Below are positions 9,829 to 57,018 of a stretch of DNA of 64,000 nt, piece after piece. Position 1 is the first letter of the stretch. Each line of letters opens with the position of its first letter. Source of the stretch: Clostridia bacterium (GTDB lineage: Bacteria > Bacillota > Clostridia > Oscillospirales > CAG-272). The position numbers and the translations under genes were made by a program. The notes beneath the pieces were generated by a model. The model did no database searches and had not been told where the DNA came from. It worked only from the letters and a program-made list of their open reading frames with translations. The DNA is taken from positions 8,171-72,170 of the forward strand of contig JAFVSI010000009.1 in assembly GCA_017503865.1 (NCBI GenBank). The letters run 5' to 3'.

Positions 9829-10389
9829 TTATACGAAAATTTTTCTATACTGTTTGCCCTCAAGAGCCGCCTCGAGGGTGGGGAGAACGAGCGAAAAATC
9901 TGCCACGAGGGAATGTGGTTTCTTTTCGGGATCGTCTTGTCTCATAGGCACGAAATAGACGCATTTTCTATTCAAAAGAGCTGCAATATTTTTCATATTA
10001 GCCGACAGTGCATCGTTTGATGCGAGGGTTATAACAAGCGGGCGGTCACCTCTTAGATGTGCCTTTGCCGCCATACAGACCGCCGTATCGGTAATTCCCG
10101 ACGCGAGCTTTGCAAGGGTGTTTCCCGTGCAGGGGCAGATTATCATTGCGTCAAGCGAAATGCTCGGCCCGAGAGGCTCTGCGTCGACTATGGTGTGTAT
10201 TATGGGGTGATTGGTTATCTTCTCCACCTCACTTATAAGAGCCTTTGCCTCGCCGAAGCGAGTGTCGGTCGAAAAGACGGTCTCGCTCATTACGGGCACG
10301 ACCTCGTAGCCCTTTTCAACAAGAAGGCGAAGCTGTTCGAGAGATTTTTTGTGTGTACAAAACGAGCCGCAAAATGCAAAGCCTATCAT
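9829..10389 (-). CDS. dpaB: Dipicolinate synthase subunit B (flavoprotein)
   Basis: MIGFAFCGSFCTH... is a SpoVFB-like flavoprotein N-terminus. The start overlaps the dpaA stop (ATGA). Confidence 0.85.
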   Translation of the reverse strand: MIGFAFCGSFCTHKKSLEQLRLLVEKGYEVVPVMSETVFSTDTRFGEAKALISEVEKITNHPIIHTIVDAEPLGPSISLDAMIICPCTGNTLAKLASGITDTAVCMAAKAHLRGDRPLVITLASNDALSANMKNIAALLNRKCVYFVPMRQDDPEKKPHSLVADFSLVLPTLEAALEGKQYRKIFV

Positions 10390-11303
10390 AATTGTCTTGC
10401 CTCCCTTGATATGATTTTTATTATGCTGTCTGCGATAAGCTCTCCTGCACTCTCGGGGGCATATTTGCCGGGAAGAGAGGGAGCCCAGCTTATGTTTGAG
10501 CTAAGCTCGTGTACGGCGGCAAGGTCAAATCCGCCCGGGACTGATGCAAGCTCGACGAGCACCGTACTTTTGTCTACTTTTTCAAGAAATTCTTTATTAA
10601 ATATCATATGGGGTACGGTATTAAATATCATATCGTAGCCACAGGTAAGGGGCTCTGACCAATGCTCACCCTCGATTTTTACCGTCTTATAACCAAGAGT
10701 TTCGGCAAAGGCGAGGTCGCTGTCCTTTCTTGCCGCGACAGTTACTTTGGCACCGAGTGCCGAAAAAAGCCTTGAAAGCTGCTTTGAAATTCTACCGAAG
10801 CCCGCAATGCCGATACTTGCCCCTGATATTGTGTGGCTGAGGGTGTTCATAGCTACAGACAATGCCGCCTCGGCAGTTATATAGGCGTTCTTGATCTCAA
10901 GGGACTCAACTGCAAGAAGGTCGTGAACGCTGTGTCCCTTATCCCTTGCCATAGATGCGAAATGCTCGGGCAGCTTTCCGCCTATGATGAGTGCCCCGGG
11001 CTCTGATAGGCGGAGAACGCTCAGAAGCTTGGTCTCGCCAAGCTCTCCGTCCTTGTCAAGCGGGGCGTTTATGTGAGCACCGTCGGCACTTACGGGGAAG
11101 GGTAAAATAATCACCGAGGCGTCCTTCAGCGTCTCGGCGGGGGACGTTTCTCTTGTAATTTTTGTTTGCCGCAGACCTTGACACAAGCCTATATCGAGCC
11201 CTGTGACCGAGATTTTAGCTCCCGTCTCGGCAAGACGCATAATGGCGTACAGCTGCCGTCTGTCGCCACCAAGCACCGCTATTTTTATATTATCATATAT
11301 CAT
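10386..11303 (-). CDS. dpaA: Dipicolinate synthase subunit A
   Basis: IAVLGGDRRQ plus a Rossmann motif (IGIAGFGRISK) resemble SpoVFA. The gene is coupled to dpaB. Confidence 0.85.
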   Translation of the reverse strand: MIYDNIKIAVLGGDRRQLYAIMRLAETGAKISVTGLDIGLCQGLRQTKITRETSPAETLKDASVIILPFPVSADGAHINAPLDKDGELGETKLLSVLRLSEPGALIIGGKLPEHFASMARDKGHSVHDLLAVESLEIKNAYITAEAALSVAMNTLSHTISGASIGIAGFGRISKQLSRLFSALGAKVTVAARKDSDLAFAETLGYKTVKIEGEHWSEPLTCGYDMIFNTVPHMIFNKEFLEKVDKSTVLVELASVPGGFDLAAVHELSSNISWAPSLPGKYAPESAGELIADSIIKIISREARQL

Positions 11304-11383
11304 AAAAAATACCTCACAAGCAAGATAAAAAACGATCTACGTTAATAATCTTATGATGCTTACGAGGCATTTGACATATTAAA

Positions 11384-13615
11384 TTACGGGTTATTTTCAA
11401 AAGAAAATTCAAACGAGAATTTTTCTGCATCTGCAATTATCACCCGTTGCGATGAGGACGGAGCGGGTAGCTCCTTCCCCTCGGGGAGAGGTGAGTGCGA
11501 GCCGAGGATCAGGGTATTGCAGCTATTTATGAAAACTTCTTGAAGCTCCGCATTCTTGCCAAGTAAAGAAAGTCTGTCGGCATAGAATATAGCTCCTTCC
11601 TTAGTTCTCAAAAGGAAGGATATTATCCTTCTTGACGAGACGATGGCACTGTCCTCACGCGGTACGTAAAGAATGCTTGAACCAACGCGTGTAAGCTCTT
11701 CGCTTTTATAAAGTGTGGGAGAGACACCGTTTTCTATCGCTAATTTCGTAATGTCCTCGAGAATGAGAATATCGTTGCTTGTTTTTGGCTCGGGTAGATA
11801 TAGGTCGTGTACTACAACGTTGCCGAAAAATTTGTCGAGTGAGGAAATGTGCTTTGGGTGGTAGTGGGTGAGCACGAGCGTGTCCGCCTCAACGAATGCC
11901 TGCTCTCTTGCCCATTCGTAAGCATTGTAGAGGGAAGAATATGTGCCGTCGGATACGTCTATTATCAAAAGCTCACCGTCGTCTGCAACTGCCACTGAGT
12001 CGCGTCCGCCGTCACTTGTATAGACCGCTCTTATCTGTGTATTTGTCGCATTGTATATCAAAAGGCAGACGCAGAAGGATGCAAGGGCGAGTGCGGGTGG
12101 AGCAAAGAGCCATCTTTTCTCTTTTAGCTTTACTGCAAAAAGCACGGCAAGAGAGAATGTCATTGCCGTTATTATTACGCCTGCAAAAACGTGTCTTAGG
12201 GAGACTGCGGAAAACTCGAAGGCTGAAAGATATGCTGCGAGGCTTGTGATAAGAGAGGCGAGAAATTCGGTCGCGTGACAGAGAAGTGAGCCGACAAAAG
12301 AGACTTTTCCAAACAAAAGAGTAAGTACGCTAATAGCGAGATAGACCTCGCCGAGCGGAGTTACTGTAAGGTTTGCGATAGGTGAAATTACCGACGTTTC
12401 ACCAAATGCTAAGTAGAATATTATACATATAAAGACGTTTGCCGAAAGAGTGACTGTCAGTGCTCCCGCGATTTTTCTTATTGAACGCAAAAATATTTTG
12501 ACGAAGCCCTTTTTGCTCTCGGGCTTTCTTTTTCGCAGTTTCGAAAGAAGCTCGGAATAAAGTACGATGCCGAGCGTTGCGAGAAAGGAGAGCCAAAACG
12601 AGAGTGAGCCTACCGATACGGGAGATACGAGAAGAATAAGCATACCCGCCACCGAAAGAGAGGTGAGTGTGTCGGACTCACTTGAAAGGTAATAACAAAG
12701 ATATGCCACAAGAAGCATAAGCACCGAGCGTGAGGCTGAGAGTGAAAAGCCCGAGACTGTCAGCAAAAGTAGCGAGAGAGCGGTCGTTGCGATGCACCGA
12801 ATAGATTTTCGAATCTTTAATCTCGTCAACAAAAAGTCGAAGGCACCTACGAGCAGAGAAAGGTGAAGTCCGCTTACAGCAAGAAGATGAGAGACTCCCG
12901 AACGTCTGAAATCTCTCACAACTCTGCCCGATAGCATTGACGTATTTGAGGTGAGAAATCCGAGGGAGAGTGCGGCGGAGTCGGGCTCCAACAATTCACA
13001 GAAGATATTTCGTATGCGGTGGCGGAGCTTTGCCGACGCGACCGACAGAGAAAATCCGTCAAATTCCTTTAGTATCACGAGGTCCTTGTCAAGTGTTGAG
13101 GTTATTTCAAGGTTTACGTCGCTTGGAAGGATTGTCTCTGAATTGCTTTCAGCTATCTCTATTTTCCCTAAAAGCAAGAGGCGGTCACCCGCCACGTAAT
13201 CTGCCTCGTGAGAAAAATTAAGGTATGCCCTTTGTCCTATTTTGCCCTTATCGGTCGATAATAGAATCCCCTCGTATCTCGTGGAATATTTTGAGTTGTA
13301 TTCGGTTTCTAAAACTACAAACTCTATCGGTGCGTTTTCTGCCGTGTATTTTTCGAGTCTCTTAAGAGGCAGGTCGATAGCAAGGAGTGAGGAGGCGAGC
13401 GAAATAGATATGAAAATTGCACATATAGCAGCCTCTATGAGCCCGTACTTTCGTTTTTCTATACGCCACGATAGGAAGAAAAGAAGGGCGGTTGCCAAAA
13501 TGCTTGCGGCAAGGATTGCAATCTTCCCAAATATGCCGAGCGTCACCGCGAGAAGCGATGTGCCGATAAAGCAAAAACAAAAGAGACATAGAGGTCTTTT
13601 ATAAAAAATTCCCAT
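11384..13615 (-). CDS. comEC: ComEC/Rec2 DNA internalization channel with a C-terminal metallo-beta-lactamase domain
   Basis: Polytopic membrane protein carrying the competence-domain motif SGVSHLLAVSGLHLSLL and a C-terminal LVLTHYHPKH (MBL). Confidence 0.85.
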   Translation of the reverse strand: MGIFYKRPLCLFCFCFIGTSLLAVTLGIFGKIAILAASILATALLFFLSWRIEKRKYGLIEAAICAIFISISLASSLLAIDLPLKRLEKYTAENAPIEFVVLETEYNSKYSTRYEGILLSTDKGKIGQRAYLNFSHEADYVAGDRLLLLGKIEIAESNSETILPSDVNLEITSTLDKDLVILKEFDGFSLSVASAKLRHRIRNIFCELLEPDSAALSLGFLTSNTSMLSGRVVRDFRRSGVSHLLAVSGLHLSLLVGAFDFLLTRLKIRKSIRCIATTALSLLLLTVSGFSLSASRSVLMLLVAYLCYYLSSESDTLTSLSVAGMLILLVSPVSVGSLSFWLSFLATLGIVLYSELLSKLRKRKPESKKGFVKIFLRSIRKIAGALTVTLSANVFICIIFYLAFGETSVISPIANLTVTPLGEVYLAISVLTLLFGKVSFVGSLLCHATEFLASLITSLAAYLSAFEFSAVSLRHVFAGVIITAMTFSLAVLFAVKLKEKRWLFAPPALALASFCVCLLIYNATNTQIRAVYTSDGGRDSVAVADDGELLIIDVSDGTYSSLYNAYEWAREQAFVEADTLVLTHYHPKHISSLDKFFGNVVVHDLYLPEPKTSNDILILEDITKLAIENGVSPTLYKSEELTRVGSSILYVPREDSAIVSSRRIISFLLRTKEGAIFYADRLSLLGKNAELQEVFINSCNTLILGSHSPLPEGKELPAPSSSQRVIIADAEKFSFEFSFENNP

Positions 13616-13629
13616 AATCTACGTCTCCT

Positions 13630-13720
13630 TTTTATTTTGTAAATTGGTGTTTGTGGGGGTGTTTATTATGTGGGGGAGAACCATTTTTTGCAAAATAGGT
13701 TTTCCCCCGCATAAAGCATC
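13630..13720 (-). repeat. Diverged copy of the composite intergenic repeat (hairpin + AAACAC + ACAAACACCAATTT module)
   Basis: The minus strand reads GGGGGAAAACC-tattttgcaaaaaat-GGTTCTCCCCC ... AAACAC ... ACAAACACCAATTTAC. Compare the copies at 16.7 kb and 22.0 kb. Confidence 0.45.
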
Positions 13721-13731
13721 ACACACATAAA

Positions 13732-14334
13732 TCAAAGTTTAATTTTAATTTCGGTAGCAATGCCGAGAATTCTTGCGTCTCCCGATTCGAAATCCTCGGG
13801 GGCGAGGAGAATGGGGGAATAGTCCTCGTTTTCGGGGATAAGCCTGACTCCCTTTTTATCCTTTGAAAAGCGTTTTACCGTTGCACTGTCGCCACCGACA
13901 AGGCAGGCGACTATGTCTCCGTTTTCGGCATACTGCTGTTTCTTGAAAAGCACAAGAGAGCCGTCTATCATACCGATGTTTTTCATACTGTCTCCCCTTA
14001 TCGTGAGGAAAAAGAAGTCGTTAGAATCGTCAACGTCAGCTATCTCGTAGCCAAGCAAGGTCTCTTCGGTGATTATCGGACTTCCCGCACGAATTTCTCC
14101 TATTATAGGTATCTGTGTGCCTCTCTTGGCGGTAATGGGACTACCTGAGTCGAAGAAATAATTTATGCCTACGTCAAAATATTCGGCAATTTTTTGGAGC
14201 TTGTCTGCCTTCGGCACAGTGCGACCGTACTTCCAGTCGGCAAGAGTAGAGGGAGATATTCCCGTATCCTTCGACACGCGGTATGCGGTAATTTTGTGCA
14301 TTTTGAGCAAATTTTCAAAGCATTGGTAGTTCAT
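13732..14334 (-). CDS. CI/LexA-like repressor: XRE-family HTH fused to an S24 self-cleaving peptidase domain
   Basis: The N-terminus ITAYRVSKDTGISPSTLADWKYGRTVP is an XRE HTH. The C-terminus GDSMKN...GDIVAC...ATVKRF is an S24 Ser/Lys dyad context. ATG 14334 sits behind AGAGGTG; the longer ORF-track start lacks an RBS. Confidence 0.8.
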   Translation of the reverse strand: MNYQCFENLLKMHKITAYRVSKDTGISPSTLADWKYGRTVPKADKLQKIAEYFDVGINYFFDSGSPITAKRGTQIPIIGEIRAGSPIITEETLLGYEIADVDDSNDFFFLTIRGDSMKNIGMIDGSLVLFKKQQYAENGDIVACLVGGDSATVKRFSKDKKGVRLIPENEDYSPILLAPEDFESGDARILGIATEIKIKL

Positions 14335-14387
14335 TCGGACACCTCTTTGATATATTTCACAATATTTCGGAAATCCGTAATAAACTA

Positions 14388-14416
14388 TTGACATTATTTC
14401 GGTTTTCCGATATAAT
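14388..14416 (+). promoter_or_regulatory. Perfect consensus sigma-A promoter reading rightward toward the Zn-ribbon gene
   Basis: TTGACA (14388-14393), 17 nt, TATAAT (14411-14416). Confidence 0.6.
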
Positions 14417-14429
14417 CTTGTCAAGATAT

Positions 14430-16457: not shown

Positions 16458-16500
16458 ATTTTCAAATTTTGCAAACGAAGTTTCTACCTTTAGGTAATTT
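16458..16500 (+). repeat. Intergenic repeat, module A, copy 1
   Basis: ATTTTCAAATTTTGCAAACGAAGTTTCTACCTTTAGGTAATTT. Near-identical copies lie at 21923, 25803, 50453 (reverse complement) and 56974 (reverse complement). Confidence 0.8.
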
Positions 16501-16560
16501 ATCGAACGGTTTGATTTTGTTAGTCGGTGTCTTCACGTAAGAGGTAAAACGATGATACGT

Positions 16561-16699
16561 GGTAGGGGAGGGGCTCGCTCCTCCCGCCTCAAACGATAAA
16601 TGGCAACAAAAGGAATTGGTTGTAGATAAAGGTTTAACACTCATTTACAATAAATTCTTTTCGTATCTTTTTTCGGGAGGAGCAAGCCCCTCCCCTACC
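16561..16699. repeat. 139-bp element bounded by 26-bp G-rich inverted repeats (MITE-like or long hairpin)
   Basis: GGTAGGGGAGGGGCTCGCTCCTCCCG (16561-16586) pairs with CGGGAGGAGCAAGCCCCTCCCCTACC (16674-16699) at 25 of 26 positions. The arms are separated by 87 bp. Each arm also folds locally (GGGAGG-N8-CCTCCC). Confidence 0.75.
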
Positions 16700-16829
16700 G
16701 TGTTTTCGGGTATCGCACATTTTCGGTTTAAATCAAACACACCTATAAACACCAATTTGTCTAAAGGTGTTTAAGCTTTGCCATTTTGTGTCAATAATAG
16801 CGGAGAAGTATTTTTAGGGGGCGTTTAAT

Positions 16830-21680: not shown

Positions 21681-21712
21681 GGTCAGGTGTCTATTTTGCA
21701 AACGATGCTCGA

Positions 21713-21808
21713 TTAGCAGCCGCAACCGCAGCAGAATATAAGGATGAGAGCTATGATGATAAGCCAGATCCACTCGTTGTCAAAAAGATTGCAAAGACAG
21801 TTATTCAT
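21713..21808 (-). CDS. 31-aa hydrophobic Cys-rich micropeptide (resembles the tiny-TM YjcZ-like sporulation peptides)
   Basis: Manual translation gives MNNCLCNLFDNEWIWLIIIALILIFCCGCGC*. GGGGGAC lies 7 nt upstream of the ATG, and a terminator follows. The ORF is too short for the supplied track. Confidence 0.4.
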   Translation of the reverse strand: MNNCLCNLFDNEWIWLIIIALILIFCCGCGC

Positions 21809-21922: not shown

Positions 21923-22060
21923 ATTTCAAAATTTGCAAACCGAAGGTTTCTACCCCGAAGGGGTAATTTGTCGGTGAGATTGTTTTTCGGTGGGGGCTTG
22001 TTCCCACCGCTCTAAACACAAATTAACTCTTCACAAATACCAATTTATCTATCATTAAAG
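21923..22060 (+). repeat. Composite intergenic repeat copy 2 (module A + GC hairpin + AAACAC/ACAAATACCAATTT module)
   Basis: ATTTCAAAATTTGCAAACCGAAGGTTTCTACCCCGAAGGGGTAATTT (21923-21969), hairpin GGTGGG-GGCTTGTT-CCCACC (21989-22008), then ...AAACAC...ACAAATACCAATTTAT. Confidence 0.75.
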
Positions 22061-25559: not shown

Positions 25560-25790
25560 AAAGTAAGAGCCTGCTTGGCACGTGATGAATGGGTTTAAAA
25601 AACCTACAAATAGAAAACGGAGTCCGAAAAAAGAGAGCCGGAACGGTTTGCAGACCTCCCTCCTTCTTCCTCGATTGACTTGTCTCGACGAAGAAAAGAG
25701 GACGTTGGGAGCAGTAAAGTGACGGATAGGACACCACCTTGCATAGCAGGGTTTCTCTATTCTCATTCACACGGCCCGGCGGGTTTTTTG
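25560..25790 (+). ncRNA. Candidate structured RNA with 6S-like rod architecture plus a terminator
   Basis: The 5' arm AGAGCCTGCTTGGCACGTGATG (25566-25587) pairs imperfectly with the 3' arm CACCACCTTGCATAGCAGGGTTTCT (25732-25758). An apical hairpin joins CTCCCTCCTTCTTCCTCGA to TCGACGAAGAAAAGAGGACGTTGGGAG. The middle is asymmetric and unpaired. CCCGGCGGG followed by TTTTTTG lies at 25775-25790. No credible CDS is present. Confidence 0.3.
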
Positions 25791-25802: not shown

Positions 25803-25876
25803 ATTTCAAATTTTGCAAACGAAGCTTCTACCTTTGGTAATTTATCTATTAGCCAATCTGTTGATTGGCTTTTTTG
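25803..25876 (+). repeat. Intergenic repeat module A copy 3, immediately followed by a terminator hairpin
   Basis: ATTTCAAATTTTGCAAACGAAGCTTCTACCTTTGGTAATTT (25803-25843), then AGCCAATC-TGTT-GATTGGCT followed by TTTTTTG (25851-25876). Confidence 0.75.
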
Positions 25877-50425: not shown

Positions 50426-50452
50426 AAAGGCGGCTCGAAAGAGCCGCCTTTT
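50424..50452. terminator. Bidirectional terminator hairpin
   Basis: AAAAAGGCGGCTC-GAAA-GAGCCGCCTTTT. Confidence 0.75.
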
Positions 50453-50496
50453 AAATTACCTAAAGGTAGAAACCTTCGGTTCCAAAAATTTGAAAT
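50453..50496 (-). repeat. Intergenic repeat module A copy 4 (reverse orientation), abutting the terminator hairpin
   Basis: The plus strand reads AAATTACCTAAAGGTAGAAACCTTCGGTTCCAAAAATTTGAAAT. Confidence 0.75.
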
Positions 50497-53306: not shown

Positions 53307-54473
53307 TTAGAAAGTGATAACTACCTTGTCGGTATTGTGCTTTATCTCGTAGTTTGAGAATTCCTTGTGAGTTTCGTAAAGCTTCATCTCGCCGCCCTCA
53401 ATGGACTTCGGAACAAGACCGTTTTTAAAGCTGATATAAAAGACGTTATTGCCCTTAATGTTCTTTTGTGCCTGTGTTTCGCTAAGGTCGATTATGCAAT
53501 TGTTTTCGCCTGTCTCAAGCTTTGCAAAAACCTTGTAATAGAGCTGATTTGCGGCAAATGCGATATCCTTTGAAAGAAGTGCACCGAAGACCTCGCTCTG
53601 ACGGTGGAAGAAATCAACCCAAGCGTCAAGGCTGTCAAGATTGTTTTCGGGATTGTAATGAAGGAAATTTGTCCAGTGTATGCCAAATACTCCCGAACGG
53701 ATAGGCTTTTTCTCATCTCCGAATGGAGTAAAGTAGGTCGGGTCAAAGTCATAAGCCTCCCACGGTACGTTTCCGCCGTCCTCACGAATAGATGCAATGC
53801 CGCCAAAGGTCTTTAAATTTCCCTTATAGGGAAGCGAGCCGTTTGTCCAGTACTTTATGCCGATAGGCTCAAGTATCTCTGCCATCTCGTTCATCATATC
53901 GAGGTTTGTGGTTGCCATTCCGCACGGAGAAACGAATACTCTCGGCTTTTGAGAAAAGCCCCACGAATCGTATATCTTGAAGAAAAGCTCAAGACGGTTC
54001 TTGAAATCGTTGGTGTCGAGATATGAGGTCTTTTTCGTTTCGTCAATGGGAGTAAAATATTCTCTTTCCCAGATCCGCTTCCCGTTTTCGTCATATCTTC
54101 CGTGAAGAAGTCCGTGAATTGCATACTCTATGTATTCTGCACTTTCGATCTCCTCAAAGCATGCCTTGGCATACTCGAGGTCAATTTCAGATGCTCTGTC
54201 CCAAGTATAGGGCTTGTGAGTAATTCCAACTTGTCCACGAAGAAAATTATCCTTGTCCCAGTCGCCAAGGCAGAGAGGGCAGACTATCTTCATATCAAGT
54301 GCCTTGCCAAGCTCGGCAAGCATTCTGTAATCAAGGGGGTGATGGTTACGGGGAAGTCCCGAACGTGATGCCTGACCTATTGTACGAAGGTCACGTCCGT
54401 CATGCCAGCCCACGTCGTCAAGTGAAAGCTGAAACGCGGCAGGAATAGTTATTTTATCAAGAATATTTCCCAT
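53307..54473 (-). CDS. Uncharacterized conserved cytoplasmic protein, tandem paralog 1 of 3
   Basis: 388 aa. Shares conserved blocks with the two upstream ORFs (LDDVGWHDG, HHPLDYRML, KIVCPLCLGDWDK, EYIEYAIHG..HGRY, HWTNFL..NPENNL, VFYISFKNGL). No signal peptide or TM helix. Confidence 0.8.
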   Translation of the reverse strand: MGNILDKITIPAAFQLSLDDVGWHDGRDLRTIGQASRSGLPRNHHPLDYRMLAELGKALDMKIVCPLCLGDWDKDNFLRGQVGITHKPYTWDRASEIDLEYAKACFEEIESAEYIEYAIHGLLHGRYDENGKRIWEREYFTPIDETKKTSYLDTNDFKNRLELFFKIYDSWGFSQKPRVFVSPCGMATTNLDMMNEMAEILEPIGIKYWTNGSLPYKGNLKTFGGIASIREDGGNVPWEAYDFDPTYFTPFGDEKKPIRSGVFGIHWTNFLHYNPENNLDSLDAWVDFFHRQSEVFGALLSKDIAFAANQLYYKVFAKLETGENNCIIDLSETQAQKNIKGNNVFYISFKNGLVPKSIEGGEMKLYETHKEFSNYEIKHNTDKVVITF

Positions 54474-54493
54474 TTTTATTACTCGATTTTTAA

Positions 54494-55666
54494 TTAAAAA
54501 GAAATTACTACCTTATCGTTAGCGTGTTTTATTTCGTAGGTCGAGAATTCCTTGTGAGTTTCGTAAAGCTTCATTTCGCCGCCCTCACAAGACGCGGGAA
54601 CAAGACCGTTCTTAAAGCTTATATAAAAGACGTTATTATCCTTGACATTCTTCTTTTCAAGAGCATTCGAGAGGTCTATAACACACTTTCCTTCCTCGAC
54701 GCTTATATTCGAGAAAAGACGGTAGAACTGCTGATTTACAGAGAAGCCCATATCTTTTGAAATCATAGTGCCGAAAACCTCGCTCTGACGTTTGAAATAT
54801 GTTACCCACTCGTCAAGTCTCTTGAGATTGTTTTCGGGGTTGAAACGAAGGAAATTCGTCCAGTGCATACCTATAACGTTGCTGTCAGGCTTAAAGGTAT
54901 CAAAATACGTAGGGTCAATGTCATACGCCTGCCAGGGAATTTCCTTGCCGAACATCTCGCCCATTTTCGGCATACAGGCAATATTGTTATACATATTGAA
55001 GTTGCCCTCAAAGGGGAAAACACCGTTAGTCCAGTATTTTATGCCTCTTTCACTCAGCTCTGCTGACATTCTTTCCATTATATCGTCGTTAAAGGTCTTT
55101 CTGCCCATTCCGCAGGGAGAAACAAATATTCTTATCTTCTGCGAAAAGCCCCAACCGTTGTAAATTTTAAAGAATAGGTCGAGACGGCGTCTAAAATCGT
55201 CAATGTCAAAAACAACTGTCTTATTTCTACCCTCGGGATTTGGAATAAAGTATTCCTTCTCCCAAACAAGCTTGCCGTTCTCGTCATATCTGCCGTGATG
55301 AAGTCCGTGAATAGCATATTCTATATACTCGCCACCTTCCATCTCGTCAAAGCACGCCTTTGCATAGTCAAGGTCTATCTCAGAGGCTCTGTCCCAGTTA
55401 TAAGGATTATTGGTGATACCGACCTCTCCACGCAAATAATTCCACTTATCCCAGTCGCCAAGGCAGAGAGGGCAGACTATCTTCATATCAATTGCACGTC
55501 CAAGTTCTTGAAGCATTCTGTAATCAAGGGGGTGATGGTCGCGGGGAAGTCCCGAGCGAGAAGGGCCACCCTCGGTACGAAGGTCGCGTCCGTCGTGCCA
55601 GCCCACGTCGTCAAGACAAAGCTGAAGGGCTGAGGGAATAGTTATTTTATCAAGTATATTTTCCAT
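54494..55666 (-). CDS. Uncharacterized conserved cytoplasmic protein, tandem paralog 2 of 3
   Basis: 390 aa, with AAGGAGAAAAA directly upstream of the ATG. Shares the same conserved blocks. Confidence 0.8.
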   Translation of the reverse strand: MENILDKITIPSALQLCLDDVGWHDGRDLRTEGGPSRSGLPRDHHPLDYRMLQELGRAIDMKIVCPLCLGDWDKWNYLRGEVGITNNPYNWDRASEIDLDYAKACFDEMEGGEYIEYAIHGLHHGRYDENGKLVWEKEYFIPNPEGRNKTVVFDIDDFRRRLDLFFKIYNGWGFSQKIRIFVSPCGMGRKTFNDDIMERMSAELSERGIKYWTNGVFPFEGNFNMYNNIACMPKMGEMFGKEIPWQAYDIDPTYFDTFKPDSNVIGMHWTNFLRFNPENNLKRLDEWVTYFKRQSEVFGTMISKDMGFSVNQQFYRLFSNISVEEGKCVIDLSNALEKKNVKDNNVFYISFKNGLVPASCEGGEMKLYETHKEFSTYEIKHANDKVVISF

Positions 55667-55677
55667 TTTTTCTCCTT

Positions 55678-56850
55678 TTAGAAAGTAATTATAACTTTAT
55701 TTGCCGTGTGATTGACCTTGTAGTTAACAAAATCGTTGTGTGTCTCATAAACTTCAATAGTGCCGCCCTCGCAAGACACAGGGGTAAGACCGTTTTTGAA
55801 GCTTATATAGAATACGTCGGTGTCGCTGTTCTTTTCGTGCTTTTCCGCCTCTACACCGGAGAGGTCGATTATGCACTTGTTGCCATCTATTTCAATGTTT
55901 GAATAGAGAGCATAGAACTGCTGATTCATCGAGAAAGCGGTATCCTTTGCGAGCATAGCTCCGAATACCTCGCTCTGACGGCGGAAGAAATCAACCCAAA
56001 GGGGAAGATTTTTGAGGTTGTTTTCGGGATTGAAGCGAAGGAAGTTTGTCCAGTGCATACCGATAGAGTTACTTGTTATAGGTCTGCCTTCGGTTCCGTA
56101 AGGCTCGAAGTATGTTGGATCAAAGTCGTAAGCATCCCACGGAACCTCTGTTATTTTACGGCTGATTGCGATGTCGCCCTCTTTTTTGAAGTTGCCCTCG
56201 AAAGAAAAGCCGCCGTTCATCCAGTATTTTACGCCACGTTTTTCGAGCTCCTTGACCATTCCCGCAAGTATCTCGTCGTTTGTGTCAGCCATTCCGCAGG
56301 GAGCAACGTATATTTTGAGCTTTTGCGAGAAATGCCACATATCGTAGAGCTTGAAGAAAACGTCAAGGCGGTGATTGAAATCATCTGCGTCATAGACGGG
56401 CATCATCTTGCCGTCAATCATTACGGGGTGCAAATGCTCAACCTCCCAAAGAAGAGCACCGTCCTCGCCGTATCTTCCGTGAAGAGTTCCGTGAATAGCG
56501 TATTCTATATACTCGGCACTCTCAAGCTCCTTAAGACACGCTTCGGTGTATTCGAGGTCGATTTCTGAGGCTCTGTCCCAAGTGTAGGGCTTGTGTGTCA
56601 TACCTACCTCACCACGAAGCACATTGTCCTTGTCCCAGTCGCCAAGGCAGAGAGGGCAAACTATTTTCATGTCAATAGCACGGCCAAGCTCAGCGAGCAT
56701 TCTATAATCAAGCGGGTGGTGGTAGCGGGGAATTCCCGAACGGGATGCCATGCCTTCGGGGCGAAGGTCTTCGCCATTGTGCCAGCCCACGTCATCAAGG
56801 CAGAGGATAAGTGCCTGAGGAATTATGAGGTTGTTCTTTGAGAGTTCCAT
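55678..56850 (-). CDS. Uncharacterized conserved cytoplasmic protein, tandem paralog 3 of 3 (first in the operon)
   Basis: 390 aa, with AAAGGAGAACAAC upstream of the ATG. Shares the same conserved blocks. Confidence 0.8.
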   Translation of the reverse strand: MELSKNNLIIPQALILCLDDVGWHNGEDLRPEGMASRSGIPRYHHPLDYRMLAELGRAIDMKIVCPLCLGDWDKDNVLRGEVGMTHKPYTWDRASEIDLEYTEACLKELESAEYIEYAIHGTLHGRYGEDGALLWEVEHLHPVMIDGKMMPVYDADDFNHRLDVFFKLYDMWHFSQKLKIYVAPCGMADTNDEILAGMVKELEKRGVKYWMNGGFSFEGNFKKEGDIAISRKITEVPWDAYDFDPTYFEPYGTEGRPITSNSIGMHWTNFLRFNPENNLKNLPLWVDFFRRQSEVFGAMLAKDTAFSMNQQFYALYSNIEIDGNKCIIDLSGVEAEKHEKNSDTDVFYISFKNGLTPVSCEGGTIEVYETHNDFVNYKVNHTANKVIITF

Positions 56851-56924: not shown

Positions 56925-56973
56925 TAGCATTTGGGAAAATCAAGACATATATTATTAAATGTATAAGATATAT

Positions 56974-57018
56974 AAATTACCTAAAGGTAGAAACCTTCGG
57001 TTTGCAAAAATTGAAAAT
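56974..57018 (-). repeat. Intergenic repeat module A copy 5 (reverse orientation), between divergent promoters
   Basis: The plus strand reads AAATTACCTAAAGGTAGAAACCTTCGGTTTGCAAAAATTGAAAAT. Confidence 0.75.

Follow-up and report, generated by a model that had tools for sequence, protein, structure and literature searches.

Module A, an intergenic repeat of an uncultured Clostridia species, as the probable enlarged terminus of a MITE-like insertion family

We analyzed a 64,000-nt stretch of clostridial DNA (hereafter, the window) across which five copies of a short sequence, module A, are dispersed between genes. Module A is probably a DNA-level repeat: the lineage-specific, enlarged terminus of a family of small, hairpin-rich insertions of the MITE/BIME kind. 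Put differently, the best reading of the copies is as a recently expanded subfamily of a MITE-like mosaic repeat, hosted by one uncultured gut or rumen Clostridia species and belonging to an element family of an Oscillospiraceae-like MAG clade. The evidence for this reading includes the relation of module A to a shorter motif in related species, the palindromic elements that both sequences bound, and the comparison of filled and empty sites between strains and species.

Results

Five copies of module A lie between chromosomal genes

The earlier note on this DNA reported module A at five places, and all five copies were found there: copy 1 at 16458..16503 (+), copy 2 at 21923..21972 (+), copy 3 at 25803..25846 (+), copy 4 at 50450..50496 (−), and copy 5 at 56971..57018 (−). 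The repeat had been put at ~43 nt, which is slightly too short; it spans about 46–50 nt, from (T)ATTTCAAA to GGTAATTTAT(C). In a self-BLAST of the window, the copies were 87–95% identical to one another over 44–49 nt with sharp edges, and module A was the sole dispersed repeat apart from three tandem paralogous genes (53307–56850, − strand; 388–390 aa, 65–84% nucleotide identity over four repeated segments), for which there was no Pfam match. A degenerate pattern for the whole module matched five times in the window and not once in 100 shuffles, and an nhmmer profile built from the five copies returned the same five in the window with E-values of 1e-13 to 1e-16, the next best match having E>2. 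A covariance model carrying the structure drawn in the earlier note likewise found only these five (64–76 bits) in 360 kb that included relatives. The sequences of its two small hairpins are as described there, HP1 being AAACC-GAA-GGTTT or AAAC-GAA-GTTT and HP2 being TACC-TTTA-GGTA or TACCCC-GAA-GGGGTA; copy 2 has the expanded HP2, and copy 4 is a variant carrying TTTTTGGAACC that was found also in contig L089. Copies of module A recur in independent assemblies from other samples, which rules out an assembly artefact.

The five copies, a density of 5 in 74 kb, are spaced 3.9–24.6 kb apart and occur in both orientations (three plus, two minus) within one replication arm, as judged from a monotonic GC skew; they do not form a CRISPR tandem array with spacers, and no further copy turned up in the 10 kb that follow the window on the right. 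Module A was rejected as coding sequence because the frame is not preserved between copies, which contain stop codons and differ in length by 1, 2, and 5 nt. Taken alone, the module has a weak terminal inverted repeat of ~6–7 nt (CAAATT/AATTTAT) and holds three short palindromes. A 13-nt fragment at 21693 (ATTTTGCAAACGA), which the earlier note had also mentioned, is an exact match, but it reaches only E=3.6 with the profile and is not counted here as a family member; on one side it has a terminator and on the other the stop codon of a small minus-strand ORF that is conserved. Upstream of lepA, at 21713–21808 (−), we also observed a 31-codon ORF (MNNCLCNLFDNEWIWLIIIALILIFCCGCGC) with a ribosome-binding site and a promoter-like site of its own, the DNA of which is conserved in contigs L005, L101, and L086; it may encode an unannotated small membrane or Cys-rich protein.

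The window is chromosomal, with the S10-spc-alpha ribosomal operon and its S10 leader and with genes for RNase J, LepA, RNase Y, and sporulation. Each of the copies falls between genes, as claimed earlier, an outcome with a chance probability of ~2e-5 given 11.5% non-coding DNA. Copy 1 lies between an AbrB/MazE-like gene and a small ORF followed by rnj, and copy 2 lies upstream of lepA. Copy 3 is found between a 6S-RNA-like gene and rny, directly 3′ of the former's terminator and thus between two terminators; copy 4 stands between a gene for a 136-aa protein and a racemase gene and faces into a convergent gene; and copy 5 is placed between two diverging promoters in the spacer that separates a 390-aa gene from a NUDIX gene. 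Four of the five copies face a co-directional downstream gene, which is not significant at n=5. In a consensus scan, the promoters of the lepA, rny, racemase, NUDIX, and 390-aa genes fell outside module A, either downstream of it or diverging from it, and the 5′ end of four copies was 24–41 nt from the −35 element of a diverging promoter-like site (for copy 1, by direct reading). As a separate observation, the segment at 25565–25789 (+) matches the full 6S/SsrS RNA model RF00013 with 33.9 bits (E=3e-5), below the gathering score of 46.4 bits. The segment has a terminator at its end and good conservation in L086, L081, and L101, and is likely to be a 6S/SsrS RNA gene that is missed at the Rfam gathering threshold.

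Module A is related to a conserved terminal motif of palindromic insertions

Weak covariance-model hits in relatives led to a motif of ~19 nt, S, which consists of TTTCAAATTTTG joined to ATTTATC (written whole, TTTCAAATTTTGATTTATC). In an alignment of the five copies, module A is S with a palindromic insert of 25–32 nt between TTTTG and ATTTATC, and copy 1 matches the S of L099, from a genome that is ~81% identical overall, at every one of its outer 15+8 nt. With up to 2 mismatches, S occurs at six loci in L081, L086, L087, and L099, where it always adjoins GC-hairpin bodies; by our own estimate, the chance expectation for this is ~0.004. Occurrences of S in relatives were noted in L099 (2022–2040), L087 (172–190), L086 (2413–2431, 13730–13748, and 18704–18722), and L081 (15430–15448, 15604–15622, and 18011–18029). 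S is nearly invariant among relatives despite genome identities of ~80%, and hairpin cassettes have it at their edges. A palindromic insert of ~195 nt in L081, directly after the rny terminator, is enclosed by two S motifs in inverted orientation; this segment is missing from the window, L086, L099, and L101. More generally, in relatives, which contain no module A, S forms the inverted ends of discrete GC-hairpin units of about 120–200 nt, the L081 cassette being at least one case with S at both ends. As judged from these sequences, small palindromic insertion elements form a family across the clade, with S as their conserved terminus, and module A is a derived terminus with an extra palindromic insert.

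Two copies in the window are themselves ends of such elements. Copy 1 forms the left end of element E2, a 305-nt insertion, and its 5′ boundary is the start of the insertion relative to L086. The body of E2 (16504..16764, +) comprises a long hairpin with 26-nt arms (16561–16586 and 16674–16699, 96% complementary, 87-nt loop) and a right terminus, B, with the sequence ATAAACACCAATTTGTCTAA (16743–16764). The left and right ends of E2 pair in inverted orientation (15 nt at 80%, 20 nt at 75%), and its DNA folds far better than shuffles (z=−5.65). Also within the insertion, an arginine-rich ORF of 15 codons starts at ~16553 behind a good ribosome-binding site; a type I toxin-antitoxin system was rejected, as this ORF is all that is present. 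Copy 2 is the left end of element E3, about 128 nt long, the body of which (21973..22050, +) consists of a GC hairpin, GGTGGGGGCTTGTTCCCACC, and a right terminus B, AAATACCAATTTATC (22035–22049); the ends of E3 match as inverted repeats and its DNA fold has z=−2.64. Element E1 (13639..13741, −) is palindromic and has no module A. It combines an S-like left end (TAAACTTTGATTTATG), which overlaps the stop codon of a LexA-like gene, with a GCGGGGG...CCCCCAC hairpin and a right terminus B (AAACACCAATTT), and it is self-complementary (fold z=−2.18). The full elements are thus strongly palindromic, whereas module A alone is not.

Terminus B occurs three times in the window, at 13652 on the minus strand, 16747, and 22035, and is the S-like terminus in reverse orientation. 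As a dispersed family it was not significant in the self-BLAST of the window, and it is solely the strain and species comparisons that lead us to take it as real. The combination of a module A-type left end with an S-like, inverted right end B is seen for copies 1 and 2, and copies 3–5 are solo. A GC hairpin with a T-run, terminator-like in form, follows directly after copy 3 (25851..25876, +) within the same inserted segment, and copy 4 is abutted by a GC hairpin at 50427..50452 that reads directly as AAAAGGCGGCTC-GAAA-GAGCCGCCTTTT and is likely to be a two-way terminator of the upstream 136-aa gene. These GC hairpins next to two solo copies probably act as terminators of the neighboring genes.

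Two further repeats were noted in this material. E1 belongs to a family of self-complementary repeats of ~100 nt with a GCGGGGG...CCCCCGC hairpin that is common to several species, with members in the window (13639–13741, −), L005 (5437–5546), L090 (21880–21946), and L083 (3512–3573; also in L084). L101 (300–340) and L095 (3940–4010) share an intergenic module, GGGCTTTGGAAAAAACCTRACAYAAACTAACTAAYCGAYAAAC..CAATTTAT, that has a three-frame stop run (TAACTAACTAA) and a B-type end.

S may alternatively owe its strong cross-species conservation to being a host protein-binding site, with S and module A bound by a regulator or nucleoid-associated protein and conserved for that function rather than for mobility. 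We consider this unlikely, despite several features that it would accommodate: the near-invariance of S between species, the three short palindromes in the module, the enrichment of TTTGCAAA in the window (11 observed, 2.25 expected), and the 24–41 nt that separate four copies from a diverging −35 element. Those promoter distances vary without helical phasing, however, and indels shift the spacing of the half-sites (3 versus 5 nt in HP1, 4 versus 7 nt in HP2). Insertion of 25–32 nt within S would destroy a compact site, yet it is the split form that spread, and the sites are not conserved at the orthologous promoters of sister species. Manual comparison with consensus sequences gave no acceptable match to LexA (GAAC-N4-GTTY), CodY, cre, or Spo0A operators or to sigma-54 sites; for cre, copies 1 and 3 have one mismatch, but copies 2, 4, and 5 fail.

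Filled and empty sites differ by segments larger than module A

Module A is present in contigs L004–L010 and L088–L092, which are ~99–100% identical to the window in nucleotide sequence where measured (L004 and L005); L004–L010 share an identical RNase Y. It is absent from L101 (GCA_052832465.1; 85% nucleotide identity to the window), L099/L100 (81%), L086/L087 (80%), and L081/L082 (81%), as well as from L083–85 and L095–98, which are more distant by protein identity. The gene order AbrB (where covered)-rnj-lepA-hemN-DUF1292-rny is conserved in L086, L099/L100, and L101, and the lepA-hemN-DUF1292-rny part alone is kept in L081/L082, and at the three sites that can be compared in L101, L099, and L086, module A is absent from all three. 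Elsewhere in these contigs, the orientation of a ComEC-DpaA-DpaB block with respect to the LexA-like gene differs by an inversion between the species of the window (9829–14424) and its relatives (L086 1–3105 and L099 1–2706).

The copy 1 site spans 305 nt in the window (16460–16764) but 12 nt in L086, and the insert begins exactly at the 5′ edge of the module. At the copy 3 site, ~105 nt in the window correspond to 17 nt in the sister species L101. Upstream of lepA, the window, L005, L101, and L086 each have an allele unrelated to the other three. There, the flanks of L005 are 99% identical to those of the window, and the segment 21935–22034 is replaced by a different palindromic element, a member of the ~100-nt self-complementary (E1-type) family; the unalignable stretch runs from just inside the 5′ end of the module to just before AAATACCAATTTATC. 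Similarly, the interior of the copy 1 site is replaced in L005, and identity resumes at the B terminus, ATAAAYACCAATTTGTC. Of the four boundaries of strain-variable DNA that can be observed, three lie just inside conserved termini. Strains with 99% identity in the flanks differ by the replacement of entire cassettes, with the termini kept. The inserted segments exceed module A and differ at each locus, and precise insertion of a 46-nt unit was never observed. The three filled-versus-empty comparisons revealed no consistent target-site duplication, the candidates being TAT/TTAT, AATTTRT, and a T-rich 10-mer at copy 3. AATTTRT recurs at junctions, where it may be part of the element itself.

Such a pattern might be produced by a site-specific recombination system, comparable to integrons or dif modules, that trades hairpin cassettes at fixed intergenic positions and uses the S, A, and B termini as its crossover sites; some of the cassettes would double as terminators. 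The four different cassettes that four lineages carry upstream of lepA, the position of most variable boundaries just inside the termini, and the recurrence of AATTTRT at junctions all fit this proposal. We nonetheless regard it as improbable, because independent insertion of family members that share their ends, or homologous recombination through the 99%-identical flanks, gives the same pattern, and because no recombinase gene was seen nearby and no cassette arrays were present.

Under the reading that we prefer, of module A as an enlarged element terminus, an ancestral S terminus would have gained the palindromic insert of 25–32 nt in the species of the window. Because the same derived insert is present at five loci and in none of the relatives, we infer that the five copies share a single progenitor and spread recently within the species by copying. 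They may have spread by transposition in trans, through a putative transposase that recognizes S-type ends, or by recombination between elements that share ends. Neither a transposase nor a full-length IS bearing S-type ends was found in ~85 kb of the source genome or at the relatives' loci, no transposase domain appeared among the genes called in L004, L088, and L090, and the neighborhood of the window contains no RAYT gene. Any effects on neighboring genes, such as the provision of terminator hairpins or altered promoter spacing, would be incidental.

Some contigs start at these sequences. In two short contigs, L092 (1–40) and L006 (59–111), a module A copy stands at the very start or no more than ~60 nt from it, and the 58-kb contig to which L005 (1–252) belongs begins inside the cassette of the copy 1 site. 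Multi-copy repeats would be expected to give this picture, which suggests that further occurrences of the elements in the genome interrupt its assembly.

Covariation in the hairpins of module A is not supported

The earlier note proposed that paired changes in HP1 and HP2 reveal selection for a fold, in a folded RNA or a REP-like DNA element. We counted covariation on its structure over six distinct module A sequences. Although 98% of cells pair, none of the 11 pairs changes on both sides, one pair has a G-U change, one is broken, and the covariation score equals that of all 500 shuffles, so the argument from covariation fails. The DNA-repeat half of the proposal was broadly right, but not for the reason given, as selection for a fold is not supported. 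The changes that had appeared paired consist only of two symmetric indels inside palindromes, each confined to one lineage of copies. In HP1, the indel is CC...GG versus C...G. In the HP2 of copy 2, the loop TTTA is replaced by CCGAAGG, a 7-mer that also forms the apex of HP1 ~10 nt upstream, and a single templated event can account for the expansion. Both indels match the expected one-step product of palindrome-templated mutation, and the mini-hairpins would on this account stem from such mutation rather than from selection for a fold.

Folding differs from copy to copy as well. Minimum-energy RNA and DNA folds are not the same among the copies; a third hairpin, AAGGT/ACCTT, competes with HP1 and HP2, excludes both, and is preferred in copies 4 and 5; and copy 3 folds to nothing. 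The z-scores of the module, from +0.75 to −2.1, are no better than those of shuffles. In the strain of the window, copy 3 has a T>C change that breaks an HP1 pair, together with a loop deletion, whereas five contigs (L005 and L007–L010) keep the T and an intact copy. These two changes are among nine strain differences in the spacer, of which copy 3 makes up 8%.

A structured RNA, whether a small RNA, a cis-regulatory leader, or a 3′-UTR element with its two hairpins under selection, is therefore very unlikely. Both hairpins can be drawn in all copies, the two symmetric length changes preserve pairing, and four copies face a co-directional gene. Against these points stand not only the missing double-sided substitutions, the inconsistent folds, and the HP1 pair lost in a strain variant, but also the positions of the copies: the genes' own promoters lie outside the module, copy 3 is enclosed by two terminators, copy 4 points into a convergent gene, and sister species lack the module upstream of the corresponding conserved genes. 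At gathering thresholds, Rfam models matched only the S10 leader in the whole window and nothing in module A, and permissive scans of three copy-bearing regions gave only sub-threshold generic hairpins.

It is more improbable still that module A is a promoter, for sigma-A or an alternative sigma factor, or an intrinsic terminator that was duplicated with regulatory regions: it is AT-rich and intergenic and contains −35-like TTGCAA and −10-like TAATTT hexamers, but by direct reading the best hexamers are 19–25 nt apart, at a spacing that varies between copies (sigma-A promoters have 16–18 nt), the scan that finds the genes' own promoters elsewhere finds none within the copies, and stems of 4–6 bp with no T-run led us to reject it as a terminator. 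Sigma-A, sigma-54, ECF, sigma-H, and sigma-B promoters were rejected by direct reading, on spacing or mismatch to consensus sequences.

Searches beyond the clade

Outside the contigs described above, module A had 3 chance matches in Bacteroidota MAGs among species-representative genome contigs, 70 matches in JGI metagenome contigs that are likewise put down to chance, none of them with the TTTGCAAAC core, and 0 matches in viral contigs. A blastn search against plasmids and phages returned nothing, and the sequence was not found in the full text of papers. Comparison of the open-frame peptides of module A with a protein database gave 8 word-sharing candidates, none of which scored. Viral contigs held 91 stretches that match motif S, most of them by appearance within protein-coding-looking stretches; only those in L115, L146, L167, and L141 resembled an element end.

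Discussion

The known elements that most invite comparison are MITEs such as bcr1 of the Bacillus cereus group, RUP of Streptococcus pneumoniae, and the Correia elements of Neisseria. Like these, the elements that carry module A are small (about 50–300 nt), non-coding, intergenic, and multi-copy; they are strongly palindromic and enclose a variable hairpin body within conserved inverted ends; they form species-restricted subfamilies with filled/empty polymorphism between close relatives; and they often adjoin terminators and promoters. Terminal inverted repeats are present in the full elements (E2 and the L081 element), whereas the solo module has only ~6–7 nt. The elements differ from MITEs in that three comparisons gave no consistent target-site duplication, ~85 kb contained no parent IS or transposase, and phage and plasmid collections, Rfam, and literature text yielded no similarity. 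They differ also in that one terminus has an internal palindromic insert and occurs alone too.

A modular build, with module A, a hairpin body, and module B in varying combinations or singly, is shared with the BIMEs of E. coli and the BOX elements of S. pneumoniae, which are likewise intergenic and frequently follow terminators. Their modules are unrelated in sequence to those described here, however. BIMEs are made of REP palindromes in alternating orientation, in hundreds of copies, and BOX elements have the fixed order boxA-boxB(n)-boxC; neither layout was seen. REP sequences and REPINs, which RAYT (TnpA-REP) transposases mobilize, are also short palindromic intergenic units: imperfect palindromes of 20–40 nt that begin with a conserved GTAG and mostly form inverted pairs, in hundreds of copies. 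On its bottom strand, module A has GTAG followed by the 5-bp hairpin AAACC-TTC-GGTTT, a possible resemblance to the head and hairpin of a REP. Unlike REPs, its stems are AT-rich and only 4–6 bp long, its five copies in 74 kb form no inverted doublets, and their orientation is mixed. The feature is undescribed but of a typical kind, a small intergenic repeat family of an uncultured Clostridia lineage.

Two aspects are somewhat unusual. A probable mobile-element terminus gained an internal palindromic insert and then multiplied, and strains with 99% identity differ by the turnover of whole cassettes, which would be of wider interest if it were site-specific. In practice, module A flags intergenic DNA that should not be annotated as a small RNA or riboswitch, and its elements offer markers for strain typing and account for contig breaks in the MAGs of the clade.
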